A stretch of DNA of 64,000 nucleotides from an uncultured archaeon (GTDB lineage: Archaea; Aenigmatarchaeota; Aenigmatarchaeia; CG10238-14). This document shows, one piece after another, positions 7,393 through 38,623 of the stretch. The notes under the pieces were generated by a model. The model saw only the letters and a list, made by a program, of their open reading frames with translations, was not told where the DNA came from and searched no databases. The stretch is taken from the NCBI GenBank assembly GCA_964392445.1, contig CAYMPD010000004.1, positions 3,728 to 67,727 of the forward strand, given 5' to 3'. A program made the translations under genes and the position numbers. The number at the start of each line of letters is the position of its first letter. The stretch's first letter is position 1.

Positions 7393-7484
7393 ATCAAAAC
7401 TGAAATTTTTAGATTTATAATGATTTTTATGTAGAAATCAATAATTAATCTCTTCAATCCCAAATATAATCTAACTAACATGAG

Positions 7485-7952
7485 GTGATATCCATACCTG
7501 AATGTACCCTCTGTGGAAAAAATGTTGAAAAACTTTTTCTTGCGAAAGTTGAAGGCTCTAAAATAGAAGTATGTGAAAAATGTGGAAAATACGGGGAAAT
7601 AATAGAGGAGATAAAACCAAAAGCAAAAAAAGAGGGACCACTTCTAATAGAAAAAGAAATCCCAGAGTTAGAAGAAACAGAAGAAGAGTTAAAATCCAAT
7701 TATGGAAAAATAATCATCCAAACCCGTCAAAAAAAGGGATTGGAAAGAAAAGAGTTTGCAATGAAAATAAACGAAAAAGAATCAATCATCCGGCGAGTAG
7801 AAAAACAACAAATGATACCAGATGAAAGATTAAGAAAAAAAATAGAAAATTCCCTTAACATAAAACTAACACAAATATACGAAAAAACAAAACTAAAAAC
7901 CCAATCCAGAAAAACTACTTTAACCCTGGGAGATATAATAGAAATAGAGTGA
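7485..7952 (+). CDS. mbf1: Archaeal multiprotein bridging factor 1 (Zn ribbon + HTH); true start possibly ATA at 7494
   Basis: CTLCG...CEKC zinc ribbon, Cro-type HTH, C-terminal TLGD. Confidence 0.9.
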   Translation: MISIPECTLCGKNVEKLFLAKVEGSKIEVCEKCGKYGEIIEEIKPKAKKEGPLLIEKEIPELEETEEELKSNYGKIIIQTRQKKGLERKEFAMKINEKESIIRRVEKQQMIPDERLRKKIENSLNIKLTQIYEKTKLKTQSRKTTLTLGDIIEIE

Positions 7953-7958
7953 TTAATT

Positions 7959-8891
7959 ATGGAACTGAAAGGAAGAGATATGTTACATCTGAAAGACTAC
8001 AGCTCAGAAGAACTAGGATATTTAGTTAATTTGGGAATAGAAATAAAAAAGAACCCCGAAAAATACTATGATTCATTGAAGAGAAAAACACTTGTGATGC
8101 TGTTTGAAAAATCTTCGACAAGGACTAGAACATCATTTGAAGCAGGAATGAATCAGTTAGGTGGTCACGCTATATTTTTGGATTGGAAGTCATCACAGTT
8201 GGCAATAGGTGCTGAATTAAAAGACGAAGCAAGATCAATCGAAAGATACTGTGAATGTATCGCGGCAAGAGTAAGAAAACATGAAACACTTCAGATGATA
8301 GCAAATTCGGTTGAAGTTCCCGTGATTAATATGCTCTGTGAGAAGTATCACCCTTGTCAAGCTCTTGGAGATATGATGACTATAAAAGAACATCTGGGAA
8401 GCTTGAAGGGGAAGAAACTAGTTTTCACCGGGATTGCAAATAACGTAAGTAATTCGCTTGTTACTACAGGAACAAAACTTGGGATGCAGGTCACATTAGC
8501 AGTTCCAGAAAAGGACCCTAGTGCCATTGATCCGGAACTGGAAAAAATGGCGAAAAAAACTGGATTGTATGAGGAGACAAAGGACTTGAAGTCGGTTGTT
8601 GAAGATGCAGATATTGTTTACACTGATACTTGGGTTAATATAGAGTTCATGACTGACCCAAAATTCAAAAAAGAGAAAGAAAGAAGATTCAAGGTCTTTA
8701 AACCTTACCAAGTGAACGCCCAATTACTCGAGGAAACAGGTAGTGATGCCAAACTCATGCACTGTCTTCCAGCTCATATTGGTTATGAGATTACTCGAAA
8801 CGCAGTTGATCATCCCAATTCGATTATGTTTGACCAGGCTGAGAACAGGATGCACATTCAGAAAGCTATTCTTGTTAGTGTTCTTGGTTGA
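7959..8891 (+). CDS. argF: Ornithine carbamoyltransferase
   Basis: FEKSSTRT, HPCQ, YTDTW, MHCLP motifs. Confidence 0.9.
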   Translation: MELKGRDMLHLKDYSSEELGYLVNLGIEIKKNPEKYYDSLKRKTLVMLFEKSSTRTRTSFEAGMNQLGGHAIFLDWKSSQLAIGAELKDEARSIERYCECIAARVRKHETLQMIANSVEVPVINMLCEKYHPCQALGDMMTIKEHLGSLKGKKLVFTGIANNVSNSLVTTGTKLGMQVTLAVPEKDPSAIDPELEKMAKKTGLYEETKDLKSVVEDADIVYTDTWVNIEFMTDPKFKKEKERRFKVFKPYQVNAQLLEETGSDAKLMHCLPAHIGYEITRNAVDHPNSIMFDQAENRMHIQKAILVSVLG

Positions 8892-8893
8892 TT

Positions 8894-9643
8894 TCACATC
8901 TTCTTAAACAGATTAATAACAGGTTCAACTCCCACTCTTATCATGTTACTTGAATTTACTATTGTTCCATCTCTTATGAATTTATCAAGTTCTTTTTGGA
9001 ATCTTTCAATAATTTTCCTGTCAAGTTCTTTTAATCTGAATCTCTTCCCTTTCTTAATCTCCCAGTTGGAATCACCATACTTGAGTAAAGCAAATAAATC
9101 AGCTATATCTTTTTCTTTTTTGAATTTATCGGTTCTTCCTAATACTGATTCTAATTTTATTTGCACTAATATTTTTGATGATGGAATAATTATTTCTTGA
9201 CCTTTGAATTTAACCAGTTCATATTCTTTCTTGAACACATCTTCTAAAATCGATAAATGCATAATTCTTTTATCGACTTTTTTAGGACAGGCTATATCAA
9301 AATAAACAGTAAACAAGTCATATATGGGTATATCCTTTGATTTATCTTCTGATAATTCCTTTTTTGTGGAAAGTTGAACGTATTTTGCCCATCTGAAAGT
9401 GGAGTGTGGTTTGAAACCCAATGATTCTACTTTGGTTATTAAATCCTTGAAGTTAATTTCTCTGGGATTAAAGAAAATATCAATATCTCTGGATCCGATG
9501 TGACTAACTTCTAATTTCTTAAGGAAGAGATGAACTGCCCATCCGCCCATTAACCCGATATTTTTCTTTTGTTTTTGATTCAGAGACTTAAAGAATTCAT
9601 AAAGATATTTTTCTGAATATTCAACTCCCAATTTTTTGATCAT
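8894..9643 (-). CDS. AbiEii-like nucleotidyltransferase (type IV TA toxin)
   Basis: GLMGGWAV...SRDIDI Pol-beta NTase motif; ATGA overlap with the upstream wHTH gene. Confidence 0.65.
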   Translation of the reverse strand: MIKKLGVEYSEKYLYEFFKSLNQKQKKNIGLMGGWAVHLFLKKLEVSHIGSRDIDIFFNPREINFKDLITKVESLGFKPHSTFRWAKYVQLSTKKELSEDKSKDIPIYDLFTVYFDIACPKKVDKRIMHLSILEDVFKKEYELVKFKGQEIIIPSSKILVQIKLESVLGRTDKFKKEKDIADLFALLKYGDSNWEIKKGKRFRLKELDRKIIERFQKELDKFIRDGTIVNSSNMIRVGVEPVINLFKKM

Positions 9644-10269
9644 GTTTCCAACCATTTCTTCTCAATTAATTTTCCCTGTTCTTCACCCAAACCACCAAAA
9701 GATAATAAATCAGATAAAATTAAACCGATTGAAGCTATTCTAAAACCTTTTTCCTCTCTACCTAGATCAAAATAGAACTCATTTTCAACAGGTATAAGAA
9801 TTAAATTACCTTCTGTTTCTGTGGATCTTTTCACATTTTTCTGGATAAGATAATCGTTCCATTTTTCAACATCTTCCTTTTTAACATACATGTGAACCTG
9901 TTCTGTTTTAATGTAAGGTACAAGTAATTCGCCCGCGGAGAATAGAGTGAAAGAATGTTTTAATTCAGAGTTTTTTATAATTTCCATCTTTTCTCTCATT
10001 TTTTTATTGATGAAGTAATGTCTCTTGGATTTTGCAGGGAAAGGATTTGCTAGAGAAATGAATTTAATTAAGTCTGGGGCATTTGTTAGTTGATATTTTC
10101 CATTAAGTTTGGTCACAAACCCTCCTTTTTCTAATTCCTTGACAAAATTGTAAGTCGGCGAGTAATTCAAAGTACCCATAGATTTTTCCAGTTCGTAAAT
10201 AGACCAGTCTTTATCCTTTTCTTCTAGTATCCAGAGTAATAAACCAAGTCTTTTTTGTGTTAGTTCCAT
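9640..10269 (-). CDS. wHTH transcriptional regulator, AbiEi-like antitoxin
   Basis: N-terminal wHTH; C-terminal LILSDLLSFGGLGEEQG resembles AbiEi-family tails; coupled to the NTase. Confidence 0.65.
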   Translation of the reverse strand: MELTQKRLGLLLWILEEKDKDWSIYELEKSMGTLNYSPTYNFVKELEKGGFVTKLNGKYQLTNAPDLIKFISLANPFPAKSKRHYFINKKMREKMEIIKNSELKHSFTLFSAGELLVPYIKTEQVHMYVKKEDVEKWNDYLIQKNVKRSTETEGNLILIPVENEFYFDLGREEKGFRIASIGLILSDLLSFGGLGEEQGKLIEKKWLET

Positions 10270-10273
10270 AATA

Positions 10274-10300
10274 TATCTATTAAACAGATAGTATATAAAG
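10274..10300 (-). promoter_or_regulatory. TATA box (TTTATATA, 10292-10299) and TATCT-N7-AGATA palindrome before the probably leaderless AbiEi gene
   Basis: Read from sequence; TATA box lies about 23 nt upstream of the ATG. Confidence 0.45.
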
Positions 10301-10520
10301 TTAACGGTTATATCTTGACCAAGTCCTCGTATGAAGGTAGTATAATATCCGACTTTAGGAACTCCCAGAAAGTATTTGCATTATTTAGGATTTTTAGCTA
10401 TTTATTTTTTTATGAGTTGGAATTGGTTAAATTCTTTTTTAGTTGAATTACGTAAATATTGGTGGGTTTCTGGAAAAGATTCTCTCCTTCTATGAGATAG
10501 AAAAATATGAGGTGATTAGT

Positions 10521-11687
10521 ATAGTTTCACATGTTGTGGACATAAAACAATTCGATAGAGATACTTTTGAATTAGTGTTTGATGAAACTGATAGGATTTT
10601 TTCTGAACCTAAGACAACTCAAATCGACCCTTCTAGATGGACTGCTTTGTTATTTTTTGAACCTTCAACAAGAACTGCAGGTAGTTTTGAGTTGGCTTCT
10701 ATCAGAAATGGTCTTTATCCCATGCATTCTGCCGATCCCGAAAGATCTTCTGTGAAGAAAGGAGAATCTCTTCATGACACCTTAACTATGATGGTGATGT
10801 ATGAGCCTCAAATGGTTATAATGAGGCATCCCCAAGCTGGTTCGGCGAGATTTGGTTCAGAGATTCTTGACAGATATGGGATACCTCTTATAAATGGTGG
10901 AGATGATGGTCATCAACATCCTACTCAAACTTTATTAGATATGTACACAATTCGAAAAGCTTATGGTGGTATAGATGGGTTAAATATAGCTTTAATGGGA
11001 GATCACAAGCATGGTAGAACTGTAACTTCTTTAGTTGAAGGTTTGGTTAATTATGATGTAGCTATCTCTTTTATTGCCCCTGATGTTTTACAAATGACTC
11101 ACAGACCTGAAGTTTTAAGATATTTAAAAGAAAAAGGAGTTGATTTCAATCTTCTTGATAAACCAGATTTAGCATTACCTTATCTTGATGTTTTATATGT
11201 TACTAGGGTTCAGAAAGAAAGATTTGATGATCCTGGAGAATATAAAACTGTCGCAGATAGTTATGTGATTGGTCAGGGAGTTCTGAAAAAATTACGAGAA
11301 AATGTCGGAAATGTCTCAATAATGCACCCTTTACCTAGAATAAGAGAGATAAGACCCGAAGTTGATGATACCACTCATAACTTATATTTCCAGCAGGCAG
11401 CAAATGGGCTTCCAGTAAGGACAGCATTGATGCATCTTCTATTGAATGGGGAATTAGAACTCGAGCCATATTTAGCTGGTGGAAATGAGGTAACTGGATG
11501 TGGGTGTTTGAATCCAAGATGCATTACATATGTAAATCCTGAGGATCCTAGTTCAAATGATAGTTCAGATGAGAGATTGAGGGGATTTGTTGAGCCTAGA
11601 TTCCGAGTAGGACCTAATGGATTAATACACTGCGAATATTGTGATAATATTCAAACAGAATCTGGAGAACCTTATAGATGGAGTTAG
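10521..11687 (+). CDS. pyrB: Aspartate carbamoyltransferase catalytic chain fused to a PyrI-like zinc domain
   Basis: FFEPSTRT, KKGESL, HPTQ, RVQKER, MHPLPR; C-terminal CLNPRC...CEYC. Start placed at ATA 10521 (or GTG 10512); ORF track start 10443 is probably too far upstream. Confidence 0.92.
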   Translation: MVSHVVDIKQFDRDTFELVFDETDRIFSEPKTTQIDPSRWTALLFFEPSTRTAGSFELASIRNGLYPMHSADPERSSVKKGESLHDTLTMMVMYEPQMVIMRHPQAGSARFGSEILDRYGIPLINGGDDGHQHPTQTLLDMYTIRKAYGGIDGLNIALMGDHKHGRTVTSLVEGLVNYDVAISFIAPDVLQMTHRPEVLRYLKEKGVDFNLLDKPDLALPYLDVLYVTRVQKERFDDPGEYKTVADSYVIGQGVLKKLRENVGNVSIMHPLPRIREIRPEVDDTTHNLYFQQAANGLPVRTALMHLLLNGELELEPYLAGGNEVTGCGCLNPRCITYVNPEDPSSNDSSDERLRGFVEPRFRVGPNGLIHCEYCDNIQTESGEPYRWS

Positions 11688-11693
11688 TAATTT

Positions 11694-12767
11694 ATGAATT
11701 ATAATATGGATTATAAACCGTCAGTAGATTTAAGCACGGAAATAGAGACAGATCATGGAACACTTAATTTAGATTTTCCTGTTACTAGTGTTGCAGGTAT
11801 TCTTAATCAACCAGGTATTATAAAAAGAACTAGATATTTTGGTGCATTTATCAGTAAGTCGATTGGACCAAGACCAAGAAAAGGTTATGATGGACCTACA
11901 ATTGCATATGGACCTCTTAGGGTCAGGGAAAAGTCCGTGGGCGGAATTGTATTTCCACTTTCTGAGGGAGAACCATATTTACCTGAAGGTTCCATAGTAA
12001 ATGCAGTCGGTCTCAAGAACCCAGGTTATGTGGATTTTGCGAAAGAAATGAAAGACTGGGGTTGGTATCCATTCACAGTTGAAAGAAGAACATTACCTTT
12101 TTTAATATCAGTTTTTGCTAATGAACCTCGAGTACTAGCTAGAATGGTACGTTATTTATCCGATATTTGTGATGGATTCGAATTGAACTACAGTTGTCCA
12201 AATTCATTCAGAGATGAGGAAGGTGAAGAAAAAATTGGTCAATCAATTGGAAAATCTCATGAACTTGTGGCAGAATTTACATCAGCTTGCAGAGAAGCAA
12301 CCGATAGAATATTAATAGCAAAATTGACCCCAAATGTCGATTTAGACTCAATACCCAGAATAGCTGAATCGGTAGTAGAAGCTGGTGCAGATGCTATTTC
12401 AGCTATAAATACTGTATCCACAGTTACTCCCTTATATGACAATGACACTCCTATTCTGACCCGAGAACAAGGTGGGCTCTCTGGTCCTTTGATTTATCCT
12501 TTGGCATTACAGATAGTAAGTTTGATTTCCGATAGCGTGGATGTTCCAATAATAGGAGAGGGGGGGATCAATAGCCCTGAAAGAGTTTTAGGGATGATAG
12601 AAGCAGGTGCTTCTGCAGTTGGTATAGGATCTTATCTTGCTGATAGGAATATGACTACAGAAGAAAGAACAGAACGTTTAATTAATTTATATCGAGGTTT
12701 AGAGAGGTCTCTACATGAAAGAGGATTTAATACTTTGAGTGAGTATATGGAGGAATATAAAAGATGA
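11694..12767 (+). CDS. pyrD: Dihydroorotate dehydrogenase catalytic subunit (class 1B)
   Basis: NAVGLKNPG, ELNYSCPN, AKLTPN, AINT, GGLSG motifs; followed by pyrK. Confidence 0.9.
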   Translation: MNYNMDYKPSVDLSTEIETDHGTLNLDFPVTSVAGILNQPGIIKRTRYFGAFISKSIGPRPRKGYDGPTIAYGPLRVREKSVGGIVFPLSEGEPYLPEGSIVNAVGLKNPGYVDFAKEMKDWGWYPFTVERRTLPFLISVFANEPRVLARMVRYLSDICDGFELNYSCPNSFRDEEGEEKIGQSIGKSHELVAEFTSACREATDRILIAKLTPNVDLDSIPRIAESVVEAGADAISAINTVSTVTPLYDNDTPILTREQGGLSGPLIYPLALQIVSLISDSVDVPIIGEGGINSPERVLGMIEAGASAVGIGSYLADRNMTTEERTERLINLYRGLERSLHERGFNTLSEYMEEYKR

Positions 12768-13618
12768 GATTTCAGAGCGGAGGATTCCAAGAATATAGGA
12801 TTAACTCACTTATAGATAGAGGTGAAGATACCGCTATTCTAACCTTAGATGGGAGAATGGAAGGGAGACCTGGTCAATTTGTCTTGATTACCAGAGAAGA
12901 TATTAGTGGAGAAAAACCGTTTTCAGTTGCTAAGTATGATCCCCTCACATTTGCAATAAAATCAGTCGGTCCTTTCACAGATGCTATGCGTCGTTCTAAT
13001 ATTGGAGATAGAGTTATGATAAGAGGTCCTTATGGTAATGGATTCCCGATTGAAGATTTCAAGGAGAATGTTTGGCTTGTAGGTGGTGGTGTTGGTGTGG
13101 CGCCCTTATTGTCATTGGCTCATGCTTTGAGAGAGGGAAGGGGAGATAATCTTGAAATTGAGAGTTATCTTGGATTCAGGAAAGCAGAACAAGCATTATT
13201 TTTAAGAGAATTCTCTAGTATGGGGCCCACGTATGTTTCAACTGATGATGATTCATATAGGGATATTGAAGACGTGGATTGGATAAAGGGGTGGGTAATT
13301 AATCATTTTATTGGGAAGCTACCGGATTCACCCGAGGAATATCCTTTATCAATAGCACTTTGTGGTAACGAGCGTTTAATGGAGCAGGTTTTAACAATTC
13401 TAGTTGATCACGCTTACTCAAAAGATATTTTTGCTTCAGTTGAAAGGATGATGTGTTGTGGTTGTGGTACTTGCGGTAATTGTGAAATTGATGGATTTAC
13501 TTCTTGTGGGGATGGACCAGTTTTCTCTTTTGAGAAATTATACGGATTAATAGATTTTGGTAGATATCATCGGGATGAGTATTCAAGAAAAGTCCCGAAT
13601 AACGGTTATGAAAGATGA
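12764..13618 (+). CDS. pyrK: Dihydroorotate dehydrogenase electron transfer subunit
   Basis: PGQF, KPFS, RGPYGNGF, GGGVG, MCCGCGTCGNC...SCGDGPVF [2Fe-2S] motif. Confidence 0.9.
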   Translation: MRFQSGGFQEYRINSLIDRGEDTAILTLDGRMEGRPGQFVLITREDISGEKPFSVAKYDPLTFAIKSVGPFTDAMRRSNIGDRVMIRGPYGNGFPIEDFKENVWLVGGGVGVAPLLSLAHALREGRGDNLEIESYLGFRKAEQALFLREFSSMGPTYVSTDDDSYRDIEDVDWIKGWVINHFIGKLPDSPEEYPLSIALCGNERLMEQVLTILVDHAYSKDIFASVERMMCCGCGTCGNCEIDGFTSCGDGPVFSFEKLYGLIDFGRYHRDEYSRKVPNNGYER

Positions 13619-14907
13619 TAGGTTTTATTAATTCACAGATTTATCAAAACGGAATTTTTCAACCATTGAATATTTACACAGAAGATGGAGTGATAGTTGA
13701 AGTTACAACAGAATCCAGGGACTGTGATCAAGTTTATGATTTATCAGGTATGATGATTCTTCCTGGGTTGGTTGATACACATGTTCATTTCCGCGGGGGA
13801 AATCAAAGTTACAAAGAAACATTTTACACTGGTTCAAGGGTTGCTAGAAAAGGAGGTGTAACTTATGTAGGTGATATGCCGAATAATGATCAGCCAATTA
13901 TTACACTGGAAAGATTAAGAAAGAAAGAAGATGTTGCTTTAAGAGACTCTGTTGTAAATTTTGGGTTATATGCTGCAGTTACTCCAGAGAGTTTACCTTA
14001 TCTTGCTGAATTAGCTCCATATGTTTTGGCATTCAAACTTTTTATGGGAGAATCTACTGGTGGGATAAATTATCTTTATGATGAACTTGAAGAAGCGTTT
14101 GAGAGAGTTGCAAGAACTGAGAAATTATTGTGTGTGCATGCTGAGGACCAGAATATATTGGATGAGGCTAAAAGAGAGTACCAAGACGATTTAAGACCTG
14201 TAGCACATATTTTGGCTCGACCACCAGAAGCAGAAATTGAGGCGATAGGATACGCATTAAAACTAGCTAAAGATTATGAATTACCATTACACTTTTGTCA
14301 TGTTTCAACAAAAGGAGGGGTTGAATTAATAAGAGAAGCAAAAGATTATGGATTGAATGTCACGGCTGAAACCTGTCCTCATTATCTATTTATGACATTA
14401 GAGGATCTTTTAAGATTAGGGCCATATGCAAAAATGAATCCACCACTGAGATCTTACGAAGACCAAGAAGCATTATGGGAAGCGATAGAGGATGGAACAT
14501 TAATTTCAATTACTAGTGATCATGCCCCACATACGAAAGAAGAAAAGAATAGAGGTCTAGATAATATTTGGGGTGCACCATCTGGTATACCAGGTGTTGA
14601 GACTACATTACCACTTATGTTGAATGCTGTTTATGAGGGGAGGCTAACTTTATCACAACTTGTTGAACTTATGCATGATAATCCTGTCGTAAGATTTAGT
14701 CTTGGTAGGTATGGTTATATAGAAGAAGGTAATGATGCTAATTTGACTGTTATTGATCCAACTAGAGAGTGGATGATAGAAAATGATAAATTGTTAACTA
14801 AGTGTGGATGGAGTCCTTATCATGGATGGAGTGGTGTTGGTAGTCCTGTTGGTGTTGTTGTTAATGGTAGAGTAAATGGTTTGGGAGGTTACTTGGTTAG
14901 GATATGA
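13615..14907 (+). CDS. pyrC: Dihydroorotase
   Basis: DTHVH, DMPN, FKLFMG, VHAE, HFCH, SDHAPH, GIPGVET. Confidence 0.92.
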   Translation: MIGFINSQIYQNGIFQPLNIYTEDGVIVEVTTESRDCDQVYDLSGMMILPGLVDTHVHFRGGNQSYKETFYTGSRVARKGGVTYVGDMPNNDQPIITLERLRKKEDVALRDSVVNFGLYAAVTPESLPYLAELAPYVLAFKLFMGESTGGINYLYDELEEAFERVARTEKLLCVHAEDQNILDEAKREYQDDLRPVAHILARPPEAEIEAIGYALKLAKDYELPLHFCHVSTKGGVELIREAKDYGLNVTAETCPHYLFMTLEDLLRLGPYAKMNPPLRSYEDQEALWEAIEDGTLISITSDHAPHTKEEKNRGLDNIWGAPSGIPGVETTLPLMLNAVYEGRLTLSQLVELMHDNPVVRFSLGRYGYIEEGNDANLTVIDPTREWMIENDKLLTKCGWSPYHGWSGVGSPVGVVVNGRVNGLGGYLVRI

Positions 14908-14914
14908 TTCTAAA

Positions 14915-15577
14915 TTATAATAGATTCATTTCAACTGTTCCGTATTTATCAAAATAATCCTCTATTTTCCTTGCTATTTCTTTTCCAGGTCGGAGTTTTT
15001 CATATGCTCTTGGTAGAACCGTAGTTGCATCTGTTAATGCGTGATAGGGAGTCCCCTTTTCTTGTAACACATCTTCAACTCCCCTTGGATCTTCATCAGC
15101 CACTCTTTCCAATCTATTAACTAAGGCTATTGCTGATGCCACATAAAGTCCAGAGCTTTTCAATTGTTCTATAAATTCAATCAATGATCCTCCAGTCGTT
15201 GTAACATCTTCAAGAACACATACCCTATCTCCTTCCTCAGCTGGTCCAACGAAGAGTCTATCCCTAGATGCTCCGTGGAATTTAATTCCTTTCCTCCCCA
15301 TCACTAGTTTACCCCCAAGTTTATATGATAGGAATAATCCTAGTTTTGTTGCTCCATCAGGGACTCCTATGACATAATCATATTCTATTCCTTCCTCTCT
15401 TAAGAAATCTTCTACATAACCCACCGTAGTATCTGTCAATGAAACTGTATTGGTAAGTCCTCTCATGTTTGCGTACCAGTCAGATTCTCTCCCGGATTTT
15501 AGTATTAGGGGTGATTCAAAGAATCCTATACATCTTTGATATATTATGAAATCTTCGTATCCTGGTCTATCAAACAT
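14915..15577 (-). CDS. pyrE: Orotate phosphoribosyltransferase
   Basis: LKSGRES, RKGIKFHG, VLEDVTTTGGS. Confidence 0.88.
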   Translation of the reverse strand: MFDRPGYEDFIIYQRCIGFFESPLILKSGRESDWYANMRGLTNTVSLTDTTVGYVEDFLREEGIEYDYVIGVPDGATKLGLFLSYKLGGKLVMGRKGIKFHGASRDRLFVGPAEEGDRVCVLEDVTTTGGSLIEFIEQLKSSGLYVASAIALVNRLERVADEDPRGVEDVLQEKGTPYHALTDATTVLPRAYEKLRPGKEIARKIEDYFDKYGTVEMNLL

Positions 15578-15582
15578 TCAGA

Positions 15583-16371: not shown

Positions 16372-16499
16372 CTAACTAGTTTTCAATTCCCAGACTATTA
16401 TTACTTACTTAAACGCTAATAGAAAAATCTCTAATCACTTATCTGTTACAAAATAACTCTCCCCAAAACTTTTATCATTTCATTCACAATTAATTATGT

Positions 16500-29594: not shown

Positions 29595-29912
29595 ATGTCC
29601 AAATCCCCTTTGCAAATAATCTTCGAACTTCTTGTTCTAATAATCCAAACAACAGTAGATGGACTAAAATTGATCTTTGAAAAATTAGTTGAACTATTCG
29701 AATCCCTAGTTTTTCTAGCAAACAAAGGAATATCAGGACTGATTGTAGCATCGGTTATAGGAGGAATCGTGGTAATACTAATCTCGAGGTTTATTTTCGG
29801 GAACACAAAAACACTTTTAAGAGTCCTTTTAGTTTATATGGGATTTGTTCTAGTCATGATTTTACTTTTTTTCCTAACTACTTCTAAAGGTCAAACTCCT
29901 CCTGTCTCTTAG
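29595..29912 (+). CDS. Small membrane protein
   Basis: Two to three hydrophobic helices. Confidence 0.65.
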   Translation: MSKSPLQIIFELLVLIIQTTVDGLKLIFEKLVELFESLVFLANKGISGLIVASVIGGIVVILISRFIFGNTKTLLRVLLVYMGFVLVMILLFFLTTSKGQTPPVS

Positions 29913-31149
29913 GAGCGACAGCGTCAATATTCTTAGAAATCAAATCTTCAGCAAAACTATGAGTATCATCCCCATGTACACAAAAAATCTTCTCAGCTCC
30001 AGTTTTTACGATAAAATCAATCAAATCCGAGTGAGAGGCATGAGCACTGAAATCCAATTTTTTAACCATCATCTTAACCTTAAAATCAAGATCCTCATGA
30101 ACATATCTACCCGTTTTCAAGAGTTTATCACCCTCAGTATCGGGAACTTGAAATCCAGTCATAATAAGTGAACAGTCTTCACGATTATGTAGTTTTTTTA
30201 AATAATAAACAACAGCACCACCAGAAAGCATACCACTGGTCGTAATAACCACACAAGGCTTCTTAACAAGTTTTTTTCTTTGCATATGATGTTCAACATA
30301 CTTAACTCCCATTCTTTTCATTGCACTTTTAAGTGAATTATACTTATTCTGAAGGTGAGGATAATCGTTAATAATATCAGTTGCTTGTCTAGCCATCCCT
30401 TCAACATACATAGGAGACTTAATTCCATATTTATCCAGAATTAACATAACTTCTTGTGATCGGGCAATAGCAAAGCATGCAATAACCGCAATACCATCAT
30501 TCGCTAGGGTATTTTTAACCGTCTCAATTAGTTTCTTCTCTTCGGCTTCTCTGTTTGGATGTTCATTCCCAACATAAGTAGATTCAGTTATTAGAACATC
30601 GGGTGTAGGTATATTCATATCACATCCAGCCAACAATCGAGTACTGTCTGTGTTAAAATCACCAGTGTAAAGAATATTTTTACCACCATTTTCAACAAAA
30701 AACATACACGAACCAGGAATATGACCAGCATCATAACTTGTTATTTTGGACTTACCAATCTTAAATGGTTTTCTATAATCAACTCTTCTGAATTTTTTCA
30801 CTGCTCTTCTGGTATCATGACCTGTGAATCTGATTTTTTTCCCTTCCATTTTTGCGATTTTAATCGAATCTTTCCAAAGCATTCGGGAAAAGGGTAGTGT
30901 TATTTCTTGACCTATTAACGGACAATTCTGGCCTTGATGATAAAGATAGGGAACTGCTCCTGAGTGGTCTAAGTGGGTATGAGTGAGGAGGATTGAGTTG
31001 AGTTTTTCTTTAACCTCCTCCGGATACTGAATCGGTTCTTCTTGAAGCTTCACACCATAATCCATTACTAATTTCTCGGTTCCTGTATCGACTAGAATTG
31101 CGGATGATCCTACTTCGTTACATGCTCCTAAAAAAGATATCTTTGTCAA
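29884..31149 (-). CDS. Metallo-beta-lactamase / beta-CASP ribonuclease
   Basis: LTHTHLDH, AGHIPGS, YTGD, ESTY, FSAHA, VHGD. Confidence 0.92.
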   Translation of the reverse strand: MTKISFLGACNEVGSSAILVDTGTEKLVMDYGVKLQEEPIQYPEEVKEKLNSILLTHTHLDHSGAVPYLYHQGQNCPLIGQEITLPFSRMLWKDSIKIAKMEGKKIRFTGHDTRRAVKKFRRVDYRKPFKIGKSKITSYDAGHIPGSCMFFVENGGKNILYTGDFNTDSTRLLAGCDMNIPTPDVLITESTYVGNEHPNREAEEKKLIETVKNTLANDGIAVIACFAIARSQEVMLILDKYGIKSPMYVEGMARQATDIINDYPHLQNKYNSLKSAMKRMGVKYVEHHMQRKKLVKKPCVVITTSGMLSGGAVVYYLKKLHNREDCSLIMTGFQVPDTEGDKLLKTGRYVHEDLDFKVKMMVKKLDFSAHASHSDLIDFIVKTGAEKIFCVHGDDTHSFAEDLISKNIDAVAPKRQEEFDL

Positions 31150-31192
31150 ATAAACAACTCCTTGAGAATTTAGTAGTTAGTATTTAAAAGGA

Positions 31193-32197
31193 TTAACCGT
31201 TGAATAGGGGACTTAAAGCTCTTCCGTGTATTCTATTCGATATAGCAGTTGTTAAAATAGCTATTATGCTATGAATCTCGATAAACTCCCTTTCCTCTTC
31301 GGTATAATGATGAGGGATAGTATCTGTTCCTATTATTCTATATCCACCTTCTACAATTCTTTCTTTTGCGGGACGCCCTTCTGAATCGGGTGTTAAACCT
31401 AGATGTGTTACACAAGTTTCCACGCTTCTAGCACCTCTTTCCATAAGAAGATCTGCAGCATTCATTGATGTACCACCAGAATCAAGGATATCATCGTATT
31501 GGACAACCTTTAAACCTTCCACATTCCCTATCAAACCTACAGGCCTTGTTTTCCCAACACCCAAACGTTCTTTTATAATTACGGCTAAAGGTAGACCGAG
31601 TACATCTGCGAATCTACGACAATTTTTGATGGCTCCACCGTCAGGAGCAACAATAACAGTTTCATTTATAGAGTGATTTTCCCTATATTTTTCAGCCAAG
31701 AATCTGTATGTAGGAAAAGCTTCAAGATGACAATTCCCAGAGAATGAAGCCACAGCTTGATCAACATGGGGATGAAAAGTAAATACTCTATCAGCCCCAG
31801 CAACTTCGTATGCATCTGAAACTAATCTAGAACTTATATCCTCTCTATCATAACTTCTATCTTGTCTTAGCCAAGGATTATAAGGTTCAATTAAAACTAC
31901 CTGTGTAGCATCACATCTTTTTAGAGTTCTGATAATTGATAAAACCTGAACTAGCGATTCAGCTGCAGGTAAAGACATTTGATTTATCAAATATACTTCC
32001 TTCTTTCTGACAGTGTCACTTAAAGTGAATTTGAGTGAACCATCATTAAATAATGTTTCATATGCTTCTATTAGCGAGAAGAAATTTCTATCTTTATCTG
32101 GGAGACTCTGATAAACTCTTTCTCCTATGTAAAAGGGGACATCAACTTTACGTCTAGGATCGTATTTAGGAATAACTATTGCGTAGGGTTGCTTCAT
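31193..32197 (-). CDS. prs: Ribose-phosphate pyrophosphokinase, divergent
   Basis: LRQDR, VAPDGGA, DDILDSGGT, THL; likely start MKQP at 32197. Confidence 0.85.
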   Translation of the reverse strand: MKQPYAIVIPKYDPRRKVDVPFYIGERVYQSLPDKDRNFFSLIEAYETLFNDGSLKFTLSDTVRKKEVYLINQMSLPAAESLVQVLSIIRTLKRCDATQVVLIEPYNPWLRQDRSYDREDISSRLVSDAYEVAGADRVFTFHPHVDQAVASFSGNCHLEAFPTYRFLAEKYRENHSINETVIVAPDGGAIKNCRRFADVLGLPLAVIIKERLGVGKTRPVGLIGNVEGLKVVQYDDILDSGGTSMNAADLLMERGARSVETCVTHLGLTPDSEGRPAKERIVEGGYRIIGTDTIPHHYTEEEREFIEIHSIIAILTTAISNRIHGRALSPLFNG

Positions 32198-32549
32198 ATT
32201 AGTAAATTTGAAAAATAACTTTAAGTTCCAAGAAATTTTCAAAAATAAATAATTTTTTTAATATATTATATTATTTAACAGCTTTTCTTATAAATCTTTT
32301 ATTCTAATACCATCTGGATTTTCATATGCTATTCCTAAGTATTGCTCATAGTGTGTTAATGGATTTTTCCCTGTTGAATCAAGTACATATAATCTACTTT
32401 TAGGGGATTCTAGAACTGGAAATTTATGAGACTTATGAGGGAATGTGCCTCAAGTTTCTATATGGTAAACCAATCCATTACCAAGTAAAACTTAAATTCT
32501 CTTAGTCAATCTAATTATTAATTTATTTTCCTATCACCAATAATTACCT

Positions 32550-33485
32550 ATGAACCTAACACATGGTGCAAAAACAGCAGTTAAACAATGTATGAATATT
32601 CAGTCCAATGAAAGTGTTCTAATAATAACTGACAATGATATGCCTAGACAGATAACAGGATCACTTTTCCAGCAATCCCGAAAAATCACAAAAAGTACAG
32701 TGGTAAAAAAAATGAAAACTTTAGATAGATCTGGTCAAGAACCTCCAGAAGAAATAGCAAAATTAATGCAACAACCCGACGTTCTATTTTTGGTAACATC
32801 CAAATCCTTGAGCCACACACAAGCAAGAAGAACAGCATCTCAAAAAGAGGTTAGAATCGCATCAATGCCAACAGTACCAGTATCATCATTCGTGGATGGA
32901 GGTTTAACCGCGGACTATAATCAAGTCAAGAAGAACTGTGAAAGAATGTTTAATGCGATCAAAGAGAAAAAAAACATCCACCTAACCTCACCTAATGGAA
33001 CAGATGTTGAATTAAAAATAGGTCAATACAAACTCGATAAGGACGATGGAATTTATCATGAACCAGGATCTTTTGGTAATCTTCCTGCGGGAGAAGTATG
33101 TACAGCTCCAAATAAATGCTCAACTAATGGGAAACTGGTCTTAGATAAAATGGGAAGGTTTGGGGAGAATATTAAAATCACAATCAAGAACGGATATGCA
33201 ATAAAAATACAAGGTTCACCAGAGTTAAAATCAACCGTGATCAAGCTTGGTAAGGACGGACGAAATGTTGCTGAAATAGGTATAGGTGCTAATCCAAAGG
33301 CCAAAGTAATTGGGGTTACACTTGAGGATGAGAAAGTTTACGGTACAGTCCACATGGCACTCGGCAATAATGCTAGTTGGGGTGGAGATGTTGATGTTCA
33401 GTTTCATGATGATGGAATAATTCTTAAACCTACTTTGAAAGTTGATGGTGAAGTTTTGATTAAAGATGGCAAGTGGGCGATTTGA
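32550..33485 (+). CDS. M29-type metallo-aminopeptidase
   Basis: GNLPAGEV, AEIGIGANP, LEDEK, HMALG, H-x-D. Confidence 0.88.
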   Translation: MNLTHGAKTAVKQCMNIQSNESVLIITDNDMPRQITGSLFQQSRKITKSTVVKKMKTLDRSGQEPPEEIAKLMQQPDVLFLVTSKSLSHTQARRTASQKEVRIASMPTVPVSSFVDGGLTADYNQVKKNCERMFNAIKEKKNIHLTSPNGTDVELKIGQYKLDKDDGIYHEPGSFGNLPAGEVCTAPNKCSTNGKLVLDKMGRFGENIKITIKNGYAIKIQGSPELKSTVIKLGKDGRNVAEIGIGANPKAKVIGVTLEDEKVYGTVHMALGNNASWGGDVDVQFHDDGIILKPTLKVDGEVLIKDGKWAI

Positions 33486-33525
33486 TAAAAAATTATAAGG
33501 CCAACAAATCCTATTAATTTCCTAG

Positions 33526-34578
33526 GTGAATAACATCCAATACATACTTGACTTCATAAATGCTAATATGTACCTAAAATCCCTGATTATACTAGTTTCA
33601 TTCTTCCTAGGTTCTAAATTATTCCTGTTCATCACCGAAAGAGTCATTTACAAATTAGTCAAAAAAACAAAAACCAGAGTTGACGACAAAATCATTCACA
33701 GAACCGGAAAACCTATCTCACTTGTCCTACTTTTAATCGGCCTCAGATTAGCAATACTACCATTGAACTTGGGAGAAAAACTAATGTCCTCCTCAACAAA
33801 TTTAATCCTCTCACTAATAATACTAGCCATCTCTTACACATTTGTCATGGTTTTTGACGTTCTGATAAATAATTGGGGACTGAAATGGGCGAAAAAAACA
33901 AAATCCACTTTAGACGATAACTTAGTCAAACTCTTACAAAAAACGTCCAAAGTAATAATCTTTTCCATAGCATTCATTTACGTTCTTGATGTTTGGGGGA
34001 TAGAAATAATTCCGTTTTTGGCAAGTATGGGTATAGCAGGTATTGCAATCGCATTTGCACTACAAGATAGTCTGGGAGATGTCTTTGGTGGATTAACACT
34101 GATACTTGACAAGTCTGTGAAGATGGGTGATGTGATTGAACTAGATGATAAAACAACTGGGACAGTGATTGATATTGGGTTAAGAAGTACAAAAATGAGG
34201 ACCTTTGACAATGAGTTGGTAATAGTTCCTAATGGCCAGTTGTCCGATTCAAAAATAATGAACTATGCAGAACCCGATCAGACAGTAAGATTAGTTATTC
34301 CTTTTGGGGTTGCTTATGGGTCTGATATTGATAAAGTCAAAAAAATAATTCTGAAAAAGATTAAAAATTTGGAGCATATACTAGACGATCCAAAACCTCT
34401 AATAAGGTTCGTGGAAATGGGAGATTCTTCTTTAAACTTTAAGTTGTATCTGCAGGTGGATCACTATTCTAATAGATCCGCAACTAAGGATGAAGTAAAC
34501 ACTATTATTTATAACACTTTGAGAAAAGAGGGTATAGAGATACCAAATCCCCAGTTGGATGTTTGGTTAAGGAAGTAA
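33526..34578 (+). CDS. mscS: MscS small-conductance mechanosensitive channel; start possibly ATC at 33535
   Basis: GIAGIAIAFALQD, IGLRSTK, VPNGQL, GVAYGSD, IEIP. Confidence 0.92.
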   Translation: MNNIQYILDFINANMYLKSLIILVSFFLGSKLFLFITERVIYKLVKKTKTRVDDKIIHRTGKPISLVLLLIGLRLAILPLNLGEKLMSSSTNLILSLIILAISYTFVMVFDVLINNWGLKWAKKTKSTLDDNLVKLLQKTSKVIIFSIAFIYVLDVWGIEIIPFLASMGIAGIAIAFALQDSLGDVFGGLTLILDKSVKMGDVIELDDKTTGTVIDIGLRSTKMRTFDNELVIVPNGQLSDSKIMNYAEPDQTVRLVIPFGVAYGSDIDKVKKIILKKIKNLEHILDDPKPLIRFVEMGDSSLNFKLYLQVDHYSNRSATKDEVNTIIYNTLRKEGIEIPNPQLDVWLRK

Positions 34579-34722
34579 TACTCCAGCTTTTCCTGTACCA
34601 AAACTATTTATACCAATTATGTCATTAGTTATGAGTGAAGTGATGGTGATGAACCGCCAATATGTAACGCTAGTATAGAAGAAAAAGATTTTACTAGTGA
34701 TAATAAGCTTCTTCTTGATTGT

Positions 34723-34977
34723 TTGAGGAAAGTTCTTGACGAGAGGCTAACACAAAAACAGAAATTCATTGTTAACTTTCTACGAGTGAACGGAGCAGAT
34801 AATATTACACGTTTGGTTGAATTTTTAGCAAAGGAAATGGAATGTTCTGAATCTTGTGTTTGGAATAATATTAATTCTTTGAAGAAATGTGGGTTGGTTG
34901 AGAATGGTTTGAATAGACCTGTTAAACTTTCTGGGGTTTGCAGAAGTATTTTTGGAGGAGATGATGATGAAAGGTGA
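34723..34977 (+). CDS. Small winged-HTH protein (start uncertain; frame open from 34639)
   Basis: LTQKQKFIV...SESCVWNNINSLKKCGLV helix-turn-helix pattern. Confidence 0.6.
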   Translation: MRKVLDERLTQKQKFIVNFLRVNGADNITRLVEFLAKEMECSESCVWNNINSLKKCGLVENGLNRPVKLSGVCRSIFGGDDDER

Positions 34978-34998
34978 ATGTTTTTACTTCTTTATTTT

Positions 34999-35114
34999 CC
35001 CGTGGTAGCTCAATCGCAGAGCGCCTGGTTGTAGATGGACATAGAATACTTCTTGTTATTCTTGAATGTCTGATAGTGACCAGAAGGTTGGGAGTTCAAT
35101 TCTCTCCCATGGGA
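34999..35114 (+). tRNA. tRNA-Tyr(GTA) with a 44-nt intron at 37/38 (35035-35078)
   Basis: Acceptor CCCGTGG/CCATGGG with C1-G72 and A73; D and T arms; BHB motif around the intron. Confidence 0.92.
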
Positions 35115-35130
35115 TCAGAGGCGATGAAAA

Positions 35131-35496
35131 ATGAGTAGAAATAAATATGGACTCAGAATACAGGGCGAAGTTAGAGATATCTATATTTTTGATTTTATGA
35201 ATGCTCTTCAGGAATATACAGGAGAGAATATTGGAGTTTTGAATGGTGGTGGAGGCTTAAAGAGACTAGTAAACAGTGATGTTGAAGGTAGAGTTAGAGG
35301 TGATTGGTATGAAATGATGGTCGAATGTGGTGAACCGAATAGTTTTATACCTTATACAAGGACTTTCCCTATTAGGTTGGATTTCAAAACCACTCCGAGA
35401 AACAAAAGAAGAGCAGATGAAACCATGGAAGATATAATTAGGATAGTGCTAGACAATGGAGGTTCAGTATTCTTCTATGGAGAGTTTGAGAGGTGA
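35131..35496 (+). CDS. Hypothetical protein
   Basis: ORF tightly packed behind tRNA-Tyr. Confidence 0.6.
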   Translation: MSRNKYGLRIQGEVRDIYIFDFMNALQEYTGENIGVLNGGGGLKRLVNSDVEGRVRGDWYEMMVECGEPNSFIPYTRTFPIRLDFKTTPRNKRRADETMEDIIRIVLDNGGSVFFYGEFER

Positions 35497-35502
35497 GGTA
35501 GT

Positions 35503-35913
35503 ATGTGGCTTGATAAAGTGAAAAAAATACTATATGGAATTTGTTTGACTTCTACAATTTCAGGTTGTGGAGATGTGAACATGGATACAAATAGAGAAAT
35601 ATCTAGGTCCGTAACGAGGGAAATTAAAGCAGAGAAATTTGAATGTAAAGAGATTTTTTATCCTGGGGCGGGGGGAGTTTTTGCGAAAGAAATAATAATC
35701 TCAATAGAAGATGAGAATGGAGTATTGTACAGAAGTAATGCTGTATGGCCGACTGAAAATGAAAAATTTGGTTACTTTGAAGAATTATGTGGTAGAATGA
35801 GAAGAGGGAAGATAGGAGCAGGAGCGGATGTAGCTCTTTACGGAGAAATAAGACCAAGAAGAGACAGTATTTTACAAGTAGATGAAATATACCTGACTGA
35901 TCTAGGTGATTAA
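35503..35913 (+). CDS. Hypothetical protein, possible lipoprotein
   Basis: N-terminal hydrophobic stretch ending ISGC; GAGG SD. Confidence 0.6.
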   Translation: MWLDKVKKILYGICLTSTISGCGDVNMDTNREISRSVTREIKAEKFECKEIFYPGAGGVFAKEIIISIEDENGVLYRSNAVWPTENEKFGYFEELCGRMRRGKIGAGADVALYGEIRPRRDSILQVDEIYLTDLGD

Positions 35914-35914
35914 A

Positions 35915-36598
35915 ATGAAAACAATAGGAATAATAGGTGGTATGGGACCTGAAACAACTTCAAAATTTTATTTAGAGCTAATTAGGTTGTCTAGAAGGGA
36001 AATGGGTCATTTACCATCAATCATAATAGAAAGCTTACCGATTAGTTTTAGTTCGGAAGAGAATTTTGTTAAAAACGGAATTAAAGAATCTGAATTCGAG
36101 AGATTAATGATTAAATCGGCGAAACGTTTCGAGGAGATAGGGGTTAATCTGGTAGTAATCCCATCAAATACAGCCCACTTTTTCATAGAAAAAGTCAGGG
36201 AAAGCACAAGTATTCCTGTGATGAATATCATAAAGGAAACTACTAAATTGTGTCTCAAAAGGGGTTTTAGGAAAGTTGGGGTTCTGGGGACTGAAATTAC
36301 AATGAAAAATAGATTATATGAGAAAGAATTCGAGAAATTTAACATCGAAATTATTAAATTGGATAAGAAAAATCAGGAAGAATTATCAAATATAATACAT
36401 AGAATAGTCACTGGTGATACTAAAACAAAAGATCAAAAAAATTTAGAAAATCTAATGGAAATTTTAAAAAATAAGGGTGCAGAAGTAATAATTTTGGGTT
36501 GCACAGACCTTCAAAATCTAATCAAAGATAGTTCTAATATTGAAATAATCGATAGTATGCATACTCTTGTTGAAGCAACATTCAGGAAATTATTATGA
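35915..36598 (+). CDS. Aspartate/glutamate racemase family protein (first Cys replaced by Ser)
   Basis: IGIIGGMGP, IPSNTAH, LGCTDL. Confidence 0.88.
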   Translation: MKTIGIIGGMGPETTSKFYLELIRLSRREMGHLPSIIIESLPISFSSEENFVKNGIKESEFERLMIKSAKRFEEIGVNLVVIPSNTAHFFIEKVRESTSIPVMNIIKETTKLCLKRGFRKVGVLGTEITMKNRLYEKEFEKFNIEIIKLDKKNQEELSNIIHRIVTGDTKTKDQKNLENLMEILKNKGAEVIILGCTDLQNLIKDSSNIEIIDSMHTLVEATFRKLL

Positions 36599-36629
36599 TT
36601 AAAAAAACAAAAATTATGTAGGTGATAAT

Positions 36630-37100
36630 GTGTCAAAAGTAGATCAAGTAAAACAGTTCATAGAAGAAAATAATCTAGAAGCAGAGATAATAGAGCATGA
36701 AGAATCAGGATTAACAAGCGAACAGGCCGCAGAAGCAACAGGAGTAGATATAGAACAAATAATCAAAACACTACTATTCATGGACAAGAAACACAGACCA
36801 GTAATAGTAATCTGTCAAGGTCATAAAAGAGTCGATATGGATAAAGTGATAAAGTTTGTCGAACTAAAAAAACCAAGATTAGCTAGACCAGAAGAAATCA
36901 AACAATTACTGGGAACAGAACCAGGAGGAACACCACCGATATGCTTACCCGAAGATATACCAGTTCTGATGGATAAAGGAGTCACTAAACAGAAATTTGT
37001 GGTTGGGTCAGCGGGAACAAAATTCACTGGCTTAAAACTAAAACCATATGATATTGTTAAATTTACTAATGCTAAAATAGTTAGTATAACTGAGGGATAG
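36630..37100 (+). CDS. YbaK/EbsC (INS superfamily) aminoacyl-tRNA deacylase
   Basis: IIKTLLF, GTEPGGTPP, VVGSAG. Confidence 0.85.
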   Translation: MSKVDQVKQFIEENNLEAEIIEHEESGLTSEQAAEATGVDIEQIIKTLLFMDKKHRPVIVICQGHKRVDMDKVIKFVELKKPRLARPEEIKQLLGTEPGGTPPICLPEDIPVLMDKGVTKQKFVVGSAGTKFTGLKLKPYDIVKFTNAKIVSITEG

Positions 37101-37104
37101 AGAA

Positions 37105-37248
37105 ATGACAGAATACTTTACAAGATACATCAAATACCCAGACGGAACACTAGAAGAATTAAAAGTTCCTAAGAAAGAAGTAAGAAAACAAATACTAGAA
37201 TCTGCTAAAAGAAACAAAGAAATGTTGGACATACTTGCAAAACTTTAG
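37105..37248 (+). CDS. 47-aa hypothetical protein
   Basis: Manual translation MTEYFTRYIKYPDGTLEELKVPKKEVRKQILESAKRNKEMLDILAKL; exactly fills the ybaK-tyrS gap. Confidence 0.55.
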   Translation: MTEYFTRYIKYPDGTLEELKVPKKEVRKQILESAKRNKEMLDILAKL

Positions 37249-37257
37249 GTGAAATTA

Positions 37258-38343
37258 ATGGATTTAGAAAAAAGAATGGAATTAATTAAAAGACCTCCAA
37301 CTGAAGAGGTAATTACAGAGGAAGACCTGAAAGAATTATTGCAAACAAAAGATCATCCAGTAGCTTATGACGGGTTTGAAACTTCAGGACTTCTACACTT
37401 AGCATCAGGGCCCTTACGTGCAATTAAAGTTCAAGATATGCTTGATGCAGGTTGCGAATTCATTCTATGGATAGCCGACTGGTTTGCTTATATCAACAAC
37501 AAAATGGGCGGAGATTTAGAACTCATCAAAAAAACAGGCGAATATTACATCGAAGGTTGGAAAGCGTGTGGAGTCGACATGAAAAAAGTCAAAGTTATGT
37601 GGACGAGCGATGCCGTAAAAGACCCGAATTACTGGAAAGGTGTTATAGATGTTGCCAAGAATACAACCGTCAACCGAACAATCCGCTCAGGACCAATAAT
37701 GGGAAGAAGCGAGTCAGAGATGCAATACACGGCACAGTTGTTCTACCCGATGATGCAGGCGTGGGATCCATTTTATCTCAAAGCTGATATTCTCCAATTG
37801 GGAATGGATCAAAGAAATGCTACAGTTCTTTCGCGTGAATTAACTTCAAAGTTGGGTTATTCGACAAGGGTGTGTGTTCATCATCATTTATTAGCAGGTT
37901 TGCAGGGACCAAAAGAAGGAAGAATGGGACAAGAAACAGCAACAGTTCAGTTAGAAGACAAGATGAGTAAATCCAAACCAAATACAGCAATATTCATCCA
38001 CGACAGTAAGAAGGAAATCCAGGAAAAAATAAATGGTGCATTTTGCCCAGAAAAAGTTGTTAAAGGGAACCCAGTTTTGGAAATATGGAAGTACATAGTC
38101 TTCAGAAAATTTGATTCTAGAACTATAAAAAGACCGTCCAAATTCGGTGGAGATATTACAGTCGGAAATTACGAAGAACTAGAAAATAAGTTCAGAAAAG
38201 GAGAATTACACCCATTAGATCTGAAAAAAGAAACATCCGAAGCTTTAAACGAAATAATAAACCCAATAAGGAAACATTTCGAAAGAAACAAAAAAGCTAA
38301 GAAATTGTACGAAACTGTAAAAAAGGCCAAAATAACCCGCTAA
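37258..38343 (+). CDS. tyrS: Tyrosyl-tRNA synthetase (archaeal type)
   Basis: [12 protein letters not shown] (HIGH), ADWFA, YPMMQ, GMDQ, KMSKS. Confidence 0.95.
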
Positions 38344-38618
38344 ATAACATTCCCATTATGTTCTTCTAACCAATTAGTGATACCTTTCTTGATATCAATT
38401 ATCACCTTTTCCCCAGAAGGCATAGTTCTTTTGATTGTCATCGCAACTTTTTTCTTTTTAAACTCTTCCTTTGCGATTTTAAGGGGATCAAATACACCTT
38501 TCGGTTTTTTAATAAGCAATGGTGCACCTAAAGAAATCTGTAAGGATCTCGCACCTATAATCCTTGCGACTTCGAATCTTGTTAATCTTTCATTTGGCCA
38601 GATTGAAATAAAATTCAC
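38340..38618 (-). CDS. rpoK: RNA polymerase subunit Rpo6/K; start possibly ATT at 38609
   Basis: [22 protein letters not shown]. Confidence 0.93.
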
Positions 38619-38623
38619 CTCAT

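Follow-up and report, generated by a model that had tools for sequence, protein, structure and literature searches.

We examined the translation starts of four genes, mbf1, pyrB, mscS and rpoK, in a 64,000-nt stretch of DNA from an archaeon of the Aenigmarchaeota (DPANN), hereafter the window. The clade probably translates all four genes, and pyrC in a more distant relative, from AUH codons (AUA, AUU or AUC; ATH in DNA) lying 4-6 nt past a strong Shine-Dalgarno (SD) motif of the GGUGA type. This reading draws on orthologues of rpoK, mscS and mbf1 that keep the ATH codon while the GTG contained in the SD is mutated or lies in another frame and no other canonical codon precedes the conserved core of the protein. 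Throughout, SD+n means n nt between the GGTGA-type motif and the codon, and L-numbered loci are DNA of relatives or from other samples.

Start sites in the window

A preliminary description of the window had reported GGTGA, 5 nt and an Ile codon at mbf1, pyrB, mscS and rpoK, and all four sites are as it described (Table 1). NCBIfam profiles identify the products as aMBF1 (TIGR00270), aspartate carbamoyltransferase (TIGR00670), MscS and RNA polymerase subunit K. The aMBF1, PyrB and RpoK profiles begin 2-5 residues past the ATH codon, with position 1 of aMBF1 at E 7500, position 2 of PyrB at H 10530 and position 3 of RpoK at N 38594.

Table 1. Proposed start sites and coding regions of the four genes, rpoK starts across lineages, and the element upstream of pyrB (window positions unless a locus is named)
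Feature	Position	Strand	Motif or layout	Remarks
mbf1 SD	7482-7489	+	GAGGTGAT	spacer tatcc, ATA 7494-7496; in-frame GTG 7485-7487
pyrB SD	10509-10516	+	GAGGTGAT	spacer ttagt after GGTGA, ATA 10521-10523; in-frame GTG 10512-10514
mscS SD	33524-33529	+	AGGTGA	spacer ataac, ATC 33535-33537; in-frame GTG 33526-33528
rpoK SD	38621-38615	-	GAGGTGA	spacer atttt, ATT 38609-38607; in-frame GTG 38618-38616
mbf1 (aMBF1), coding from ATA	7494-7952	+		would give M-PECTLCG...
pyrB, coding from ATA	10521-11687	+		PyrB with C-terminal extension resembling the PyrI zinc domain
mscS, coding from ATC	33535-34578	+		database call starts instead at ATG 33568
rpoK, coding from ATT	38340-38609	-		directly after rpoN, stop TAA 38626-38624
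rpoK start, window			GAGGTGA-atttt-ATT	
rpoK start, L093			AGGTGA-tttt-ATA	
rpoK start, L081			AGGTGG-tttt-ATA	
rpoK start, L082/L083			AGGTGA-tttt-ATT	
rpoK start, L084			AGGTGA-tttt-ATT	
rpoK start, L086			AGGTGT-aaac-GTG	one codon downstream, own SD
pyrB upstream element, window	10453-10520			
pyrB upstream element, L089	L089:60-136			
pyrB upstream element, L097	L097:2600-2671			
pyrB upstream element, L090	L090:1590-1655			

The motif is purine-rich, as expected of a sequence complementary to the 3' end of 16S rRNA, recurs at ~16 canonical starts in the window and matches the SD of P. abyssi. A scan of both strands for GGTG found these ~16 genes with GGTG(A/G/T) and then ATG, GTG or TTG 4-9 nt on; most of the spacings are 4-6 nt, the range that the preliminary description had given for normal starts after GGTGA. 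The same scan found no other well-defined window gene in which an SD is followed by a non-start codon. At the base composition of the window (G+C 35%) an ATH triplet is expected by chance at ~9% of positions; among SD-led conserved genes lacking a canonical codon at SD+3 to SD+9, ATH stands at SD+5 in 4/4, and it is kept in orthologues. The spacing is thus 5 nt at every window site, and it is 4-6 nt in the orthologues. By our own count the SD is 8, 8, 7 and 6 nt long at the ATH genes compared with ~6 nt at canonical starts. In one respect the sites depart from archaeal SD-led starts: in place of AUG, GUG or UUG they carry ATA, ATA, ATC and ATT.

The position of the ATH codon agrees with the N-termini of relatives. 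An ATG occupies it in mbf1 of L002 and in mscS of L096, a GTG lies one codon off in rpoK of L086, and for pyrC the relation is reversed, with ATG in the window and ATA in L090.

As the preliminary description stated, the list of open reading frames (ORFs) takes the GTG of the SD as the start of mbf1, mscS and rpoK; for pyrB it takes TTG 10443. Four genes with canonical starts share the 5-nt spacing, namely tyrS (37258), pyrF (16362), a racemase gene (35915) and a gene starting with TTG (59190), and they too have the GTG of the SD in frame, which the ORF list picks in 3/4. Because tyrS, pyrF and the racemase gene carry this same GTG together with an ATG at SD+5, the in-frame GTG is a by-product of the 5-nt spacing and no evidence of a start.

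Several further ATH codons were set aside as candidates. ATA 3797 lies in a purF-like ORF whose gene has its own GGTGA+4+ATG at 3842. ATA 51533, ATT 30613 and ATT 20645 follow GGTG motifs that lie inside or antisense to other genes, and an ATT start for a GTPase gene at L086:16171 was rejected in favour of an in-frame ATG 6 codons upstream.

SD-led starts are a minority in the window, with operon-internal genes among them. Most window genes show a leaderless pattern, in which there is no SD and a TATA-like 8-mer ends 21-24 nt before the ATG. This signature, with a TTTAWAWA-like box, is seen at ~30 SD-less genes [e.g. 7392 (-), 10269 (-), 44651 (+) and 63410 (-)], and the start codon of SD-less genes is nearly always ATG. 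The 21-24 nt between TATA end and start, calibrated on these genes, is the yardstick for leaderless starts used below.

The nearest genomes to the window, judged by its ornithine carbamoyltransferase, are metagenome-assembled genomes (MAGs) of Aenigmarchaeota, represented by L001 (81%) and L002 (79%). L093 comes from the same MAG as L001 and is syntenic with the window over 33.5-40 kb. A search for the window in public sequencing runs matched low-coverage DNA metagenomes only, and no RNA run. Contigs of one run (X1) reproduce positions 7365-7558 and 10274-10606, and those of a second (X2) positions 7377-7534, with zero differences. Identity of these independent contigs at the mbf1 and pyrB sites excludes assembly error for those two sites.

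Orthologues and competing start codons

For rpoK we compared six lineages, found by scanning metagenomes with the adjacent S9 gene and by adding L093 (Table 1). Five of them keep ATT or ATA at SD+4 or SD+5, and four have no in-frame canonical codon. In these four (L081, L082/83, L084 and L093) the spacing is 4 nt, which puts the GTG of the SD out of frame. From the upstream stop to the ATH codon they contain zero in-frame ATG, GTG or TTG codons, and the first canonical codon downstream lies only past the LTRFE core. Related RpoK N-termini (MFVWPKDRLTRFE, MWPLDRLTRFE, MIWPKD...) follow the pattern M(x)(x)WP.DRLTRFE, which corresponds to the ATH position; a search among representative RpoK proteins yielded protein N-termini only, with no DNA, and adds little. 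Judged from these alignments, rpoK alone shows that ATH starts are used in the clade. The NCBI call for rpoK at L093:7581-7874 (-) already begins at an ATA, which precedes the SD-proximal one by eight codons (97 vs 89 aa).

The mscS gene of L093 (87% identical) has ctt-AGGTGT-ataact-ATC, in which ATC stays at SD+6 and the GTG falls in another frame. The earliest canonical codon is a TTG within the first transmembrane helix, and the public call is shortened, at 307 aa. An ATC start therefore appears to be required in L093 mscS. The more distant L096 gene (63%) has AGGTAA-attaa-ATG, with ATG at the ATC position and GTG changed to GTA.

The mbf1 family is more varied. The L001 start is identical to that of the window, and in L002 the motif is GGTAG, with no GTG; an ATG follows exactly at the ATA codon, and four codons before it there is a stop. 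The L097/L098 loci come from two samples and read AGGCGA-tacca-ATT; here the GTG is replaced by GCG, a TAG lies three codons upstream, and there are zero canonical codons before the CxxC of the zinc ribbon. The remaining loci read GGTGA-tatcc-ATT (L099-L101), GGTGG-tatcc-ATA (L103) and GGTG-ATG-ccc-ATC (L102), the last with a canonical ATG that lies two codons upstream and overlaps the SD. Residue 4 is Ile in the ten listed close MBF1 homologues called from three codons upstream; called MBF1 N-termini read MISIPEC, MILIPEC, MVSISEC, VTFISEC and VVSIPEC. Three further homologue calls, among loci L097-L101, are truncated and have lost the first CxxC. By these comparisons the mbf1 N-terminus is shifted within a four-codon span across the family, and a non-canonical start would therefore be unavoidable only in L097/98. 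For the window gene the ATA start is favoured, since its SD extends over 8 nt and neither of two candidate TATA boxes, at 35 nt and 15 nt from the GTG, satisfies the 21-24 nt rule.

Only one close PyrB relative was found in the protein collection, that of L089 (63%). Its gene reads AGGTGT-tgatt-ATA, with ATA conserved at SD+5, and in more distant pyrB genes (L090, L097, L103) an ATG lies within a residue or a few of the ATA position. The predicted pyrB TATA box of the window (10453-10460) ends 51 nt before the GTG of the SD and implies a leader of ~37 nt, so that both SD and GTG would lie inside the mRNA. For pyrC, the L090 gene reads GGTGA-ttaat-ATA and aligns residue for residue with the window gene from its ATG at 13615.

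Two further features of pyrB are worth recording. An upstream element, TATT-GGTGGGTTTCT ... TCTCCTTCTAT(G/T)AGATA(G/A)AAAA, is kept among relatives that are 40-63% identical in protein (Table 1). A regulator may bind there, or the element may act in the leader in pyrimidine control; RNAalifold, applied to the leader, gave -1.1 kcal/mol and no convincing structure. The window PyrB is also ~80 residues longer than usual, with a tail spaced CxxxxC...CxxC that resembles that of a relative (P0003), itself a weak match to Pfam PyrI_C. The protein looks like a catalytic chain to which the regulatory chain's zinc domain has been fused. In the window pyrB is not followed by a separate pyrI; L097 has one.

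The alternative that survives best is that the window copies really start at the GTG of the SD, the ATH codon being an ordinary Ile three residues in, with mbf1 and mscS leaderless or nearly so and rpoK translated by reinitiation after rpoN, the stop of which precedes the rpoK GTG by 5 nt. We consider it unlikely, although several observations favour it and weigh against AUH initiation. Each of the four window sites has a spacing of exactly 5 nt and hence an in-frame GTG; an all-5 outcome has a chance of a few per cent under the canonical distribution, though the way in which the sites were noticed favours a spacing of 5. The mscS gene of L094 (84%) is SD-less, and its ATG aligns with window GTG 33526 in an identical promoter geometry, 26 nt past the same TATA box; the predicted window box (33492-33499) likewise ends 26 nt before the GTG, borderline by the 21-24 nt yardstick. 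Some mbf1 orthologues have a canonical codon 2-3 codons before the ATH codon (ATG in L102; GTG in L099-L103), and in L099-L103 that codon lies 24-29 nt past a conserved AATTAAT box, as in leaderless genes. This box stands 24-26 nt before GGTG in L097-L103; the distance is 34-35 nt in the window and L001 and ~41 nt in L002. The L089 pyrB has both a GTG and a TTG in frame and so does not discriminate. Finally, AUH near-cognates are very inefficient where they have been measured in other organisms, which is awkward for an RNA polymerase subunit.

Against a GTG start stands the lack of conservation of that codon in intact genes: rpoK of L081-L084 and L093 and mscS of L093 have it in another frame, and it has become GCG in mbf1 of L097/98 and GTA in L002 and L096. 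The same in-frame GTG accompanies an ATG at SD+5 in tyrS, pyrF and the racemase gene, and a leaderless GTG would be at odds with the near-universal ATG of SD-less window genes. The window mbf1 GTG is off the 21-24 nt rule, as noted above, and the pyrB GTG would lie within the predicted leader with no SD of its own. Window mscS could start at either ATC or a leaderless GTG. The alignment of orthologous N-termini bears in two ways on the proposal of the preliminary description that this lineage may initiate at AUH codons. The proposal is upheld for the lineage by rpoK of L081-L084 and L093, mscS of L093 and mbf1 of L097/98, none of which has a canonical start; the ATG of L094 mscS at the GTG position counts the other way, and in the window itself a GTG start is possible for mbf1 and mscS.

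Recoding, either as a read-through or frameshift fusion of RpoN and RpoK or as reinitiation after a one-codon mini-ORF, seems very improbable. Three lineages (L081, L082/83 and L093) have the rpoN stop in the rpoK frame, as a fusion would require, but in the window and in L084 it is out of frame, and read-through therefore fails as an explanation. The mini-ORF, ATG AGG TGA, surrounds the SD at 7480-7488, 10507-10515 and 38623-38615 (-), with a TAG version at L002:9525-9533; that is, ATGAGGTGA is present at 3/4 window sites and ATGAGGTAG in L002. Its ATG is missing in L001, L089, L081-L084, L093 and window mscS, and mbf1 and pyrB follow divergent intergenic regions rather than an upstream gene. 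Other orthologues do not conserve the mini-ORF, which is probably no more than an extended match to the anti-SD.

Still less probable is that other canonical codons, TTG 10443 or GTG 10536 for pyrB and ATG 33568 for mscS, are the real starts. Two of them are used in database calls (P0001, 414 aa, from TTG 10443; P0121, 336 aa, from ATG 33568), but Prodigal is by design blind to ATA and ATT starts (PMC2848648). In L089 a TAG directly precedes the SD with its GTG, which means that the TTG 10443 extension is not conserved; GTG 10536 is GTA in L089 and sits past the conserved His of the family N-terminus. For mscS, the 12-15 residues upstream of ATG 33568 match residues conserved in twenty MscS homologues. 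Sequencing or assembly errors, or decaying pseudogenes, are a negligible prospect: coverage of the source metagenome is low (~4x), but the same ATH codons recur in many independent assemblies and samples, the contigs of two runs at mbf1 and of one at pyrB are identical to the window, and the ORFs are full length and conserved.

Extent of the proposed ATH starts and neighbouring genes

Putative ATH starts account for 4 of ~65 window genes (~6%), or about a fifth of the SD-led starts. Among ~60 further genes flanking the anchor genes in L003, L086, L093, L102 and L103, no new ATH family was found. The preliminary description had envisaged routine AUH initiation; the cases are instead confined to mbf1, rpoK, mscS, pyrB and pyrC, plus one candidate gene for a winged helix-turn-helix (wHTH) protein. 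Gene-specific, long-retained ATH starts fit these sequence comparisons better than routine use.

The wHTH gene [34639-34977 (+)] was the one extra gene flagged when ORF 5' ends throughout the window were compared with orthologues. It has relatives at L093:3307-3684, L082 ~5022 (-) and L094:1304-1627. Its sole canonical in-frame start is TTG 34723, and 27 upstream codons align in frame, including a whole-codon indel. In L082 the TTG is replaced by CTT, leaving a conserved N-terminal extension with no canonical start. The region overlaps both a conserved ATH codon (ATA 34660) and an out-of-frame upstream ORF (uORF) of 9-10 codons (ATG 34649, MNRQYVTLV*) that is likewise conserved. The gene may represent a fifth non-canonical start, or its expression may be coupled to the uORF.

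Elsewhere in the window, the first-start rule of the ORF list misleads at 31193-32242 (-). A PRPP synthase gene that had seemed to have no proper start was dropped as a candidate there, the real start being ATG 32197, which matches L096, as against the listed TTG 32242. For a 434-aa gene at 53236-54540 (-), TTG 54540 (21 nt) fits the leaderless TATA spacing better than ATG 54531. Rfam and ARAGORN searches of the 64-kb window gave neither an initiator tRNA nor a 16S rRNA. Its tRNAs are tRNA-His, tRNA-Arg, tRNA-Ser and two with introns. One of the latter [34999-35114 (+)], missed by ARAGORN, is probably tRNA-Tyr (GUA) with an intron of ~47 nt. The other [55820-55914 (-)] carries its intron, ~25-30 nt long, within or close to the anticodon arm; ARAGORN gives it a 4-base anticodon, and it is not an initiator (G1-C72).

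Proposed initiation at AUH codons and its relation to known systems

The layout of the four window sites matches the start region of P. abyssi aEF1A, GGAGGUGAUUUAA-AUG (PMC6237735). With archaeal SD-led initiation as represented by P. abyssi aEF1A and by Sulfolobus operon genes (GGUGA), they share the GGUGA motif, extended to GAGGUGAU, the ~5-nt spacing, the position relative to orthologous N-termini, and use both within an operon (rpoK) and in first genes. They differ from it in the start codon. A 2020 review of archaeal initiation gives only AUG, GUG and UUG as start codons (PMC7531240), and aIF1 reportedly destabilises complexes on non-AUG codons (PMC6237735). Our literature search found no account of AUH starts in DPANN or other archaea; a prior description is still possible.

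Initiation at AUH in these genes would proceed by pairing of the SD with the anti-SD, setting the small ribosomal subunit with the AUH codon in the P site. The initiator Met-tRNA would then pair with the first two bases and tolerate a mismatch at the third position, so that the protein begins with Met. A long SD, of 8 nt in mbf1 and pyrB and 7 nt in rpoK, may make up for the weak codon; alternatively, the codon may serve to hold output down. The longer average SD at the ATH genes fits compensation for a weak codon.

A broader version, in which the start check of the whole clade is blind to the third base and AUH after a good SD is about as good as GUG or UUG, is possible but doubtful. An altered aIF1, aIF2, initiator tRNA or P-site rRNA could be the source of such blindness. 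A tblastn search with an M. jannaschii aIF1 query, a lead only, found no aIF1 in the window or the fetched loci. If third-base blindness were true, many more AUH starts would be hidden across the genome, some of them SD-less, for example at the wHTH gene.

Leaderless initiation in archaea resembles the present case in that most window genes appear to use it, and the promoters of mscS and of some mbf1 genes put the predicted transcript start near GGTGA. Unlike it, mscS of L093 and mbf1 of L097/98 have no canonical codon there, rpoK is operon-internal and pyrB has a predicted leader. In bacteria, AUU starts occur in infC and pcnB, and ATT, ATC and ATA are allowed in NCBI translation table 11. 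The AUU of infC forms a feedback loop, its product IF3 discriminating against AUU. What these bacterial genes share with ours is an AUH near-cognate that follows a good SD and is conserved over evolution in particular genes. They are unlike ours in frequency, a handful per bacterial genome compared with ~6% of window genes. The window genes, encoding aMBF1, PyrB, MscS and RpoK, also differ from infC in that none is an initiation factor, as infC-type autoregulation would call for, and their archaeal host uses aIF1 and aIF2. Animal mitochondria start at AUA and AUU by means of a modified tRNA-Met anticodon, with AUA as a Met codon and leaderless mRNAs. There, as proposed here, Ile-type codons are read at the start by an initiator or Met tRNA; nothing in the window suggests a change of code, and AUU and AUC are used beside AUA. 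With AUH starts known in bacteria, the archaeal case extends a known phenomenon and is no new principle.

A practical consequence concerns annotation. Prodigal never considers ATA or ATT starts (PMC2848648). Since such callers leave ATA, ATT and ATC out of account, standard Prodigal-type calls give wrong N-termini in these DPANN genomes. Window pyrB is called 26 residues too long and window mscS 11 too short; the L093 mscS call lacks 40 residues and with them the first membrane helix, and three mbf1 calls lose the first zinc-binding CxxC.

Between orthologues with just 60-75% identity, AUH starts have been kept for a subunit of RNA polymerase and for a factor associated with the ribosome. The clade would thus offer a natural system for asking how the start-codon check by e/aIF1 and aIF2 can be tuned.

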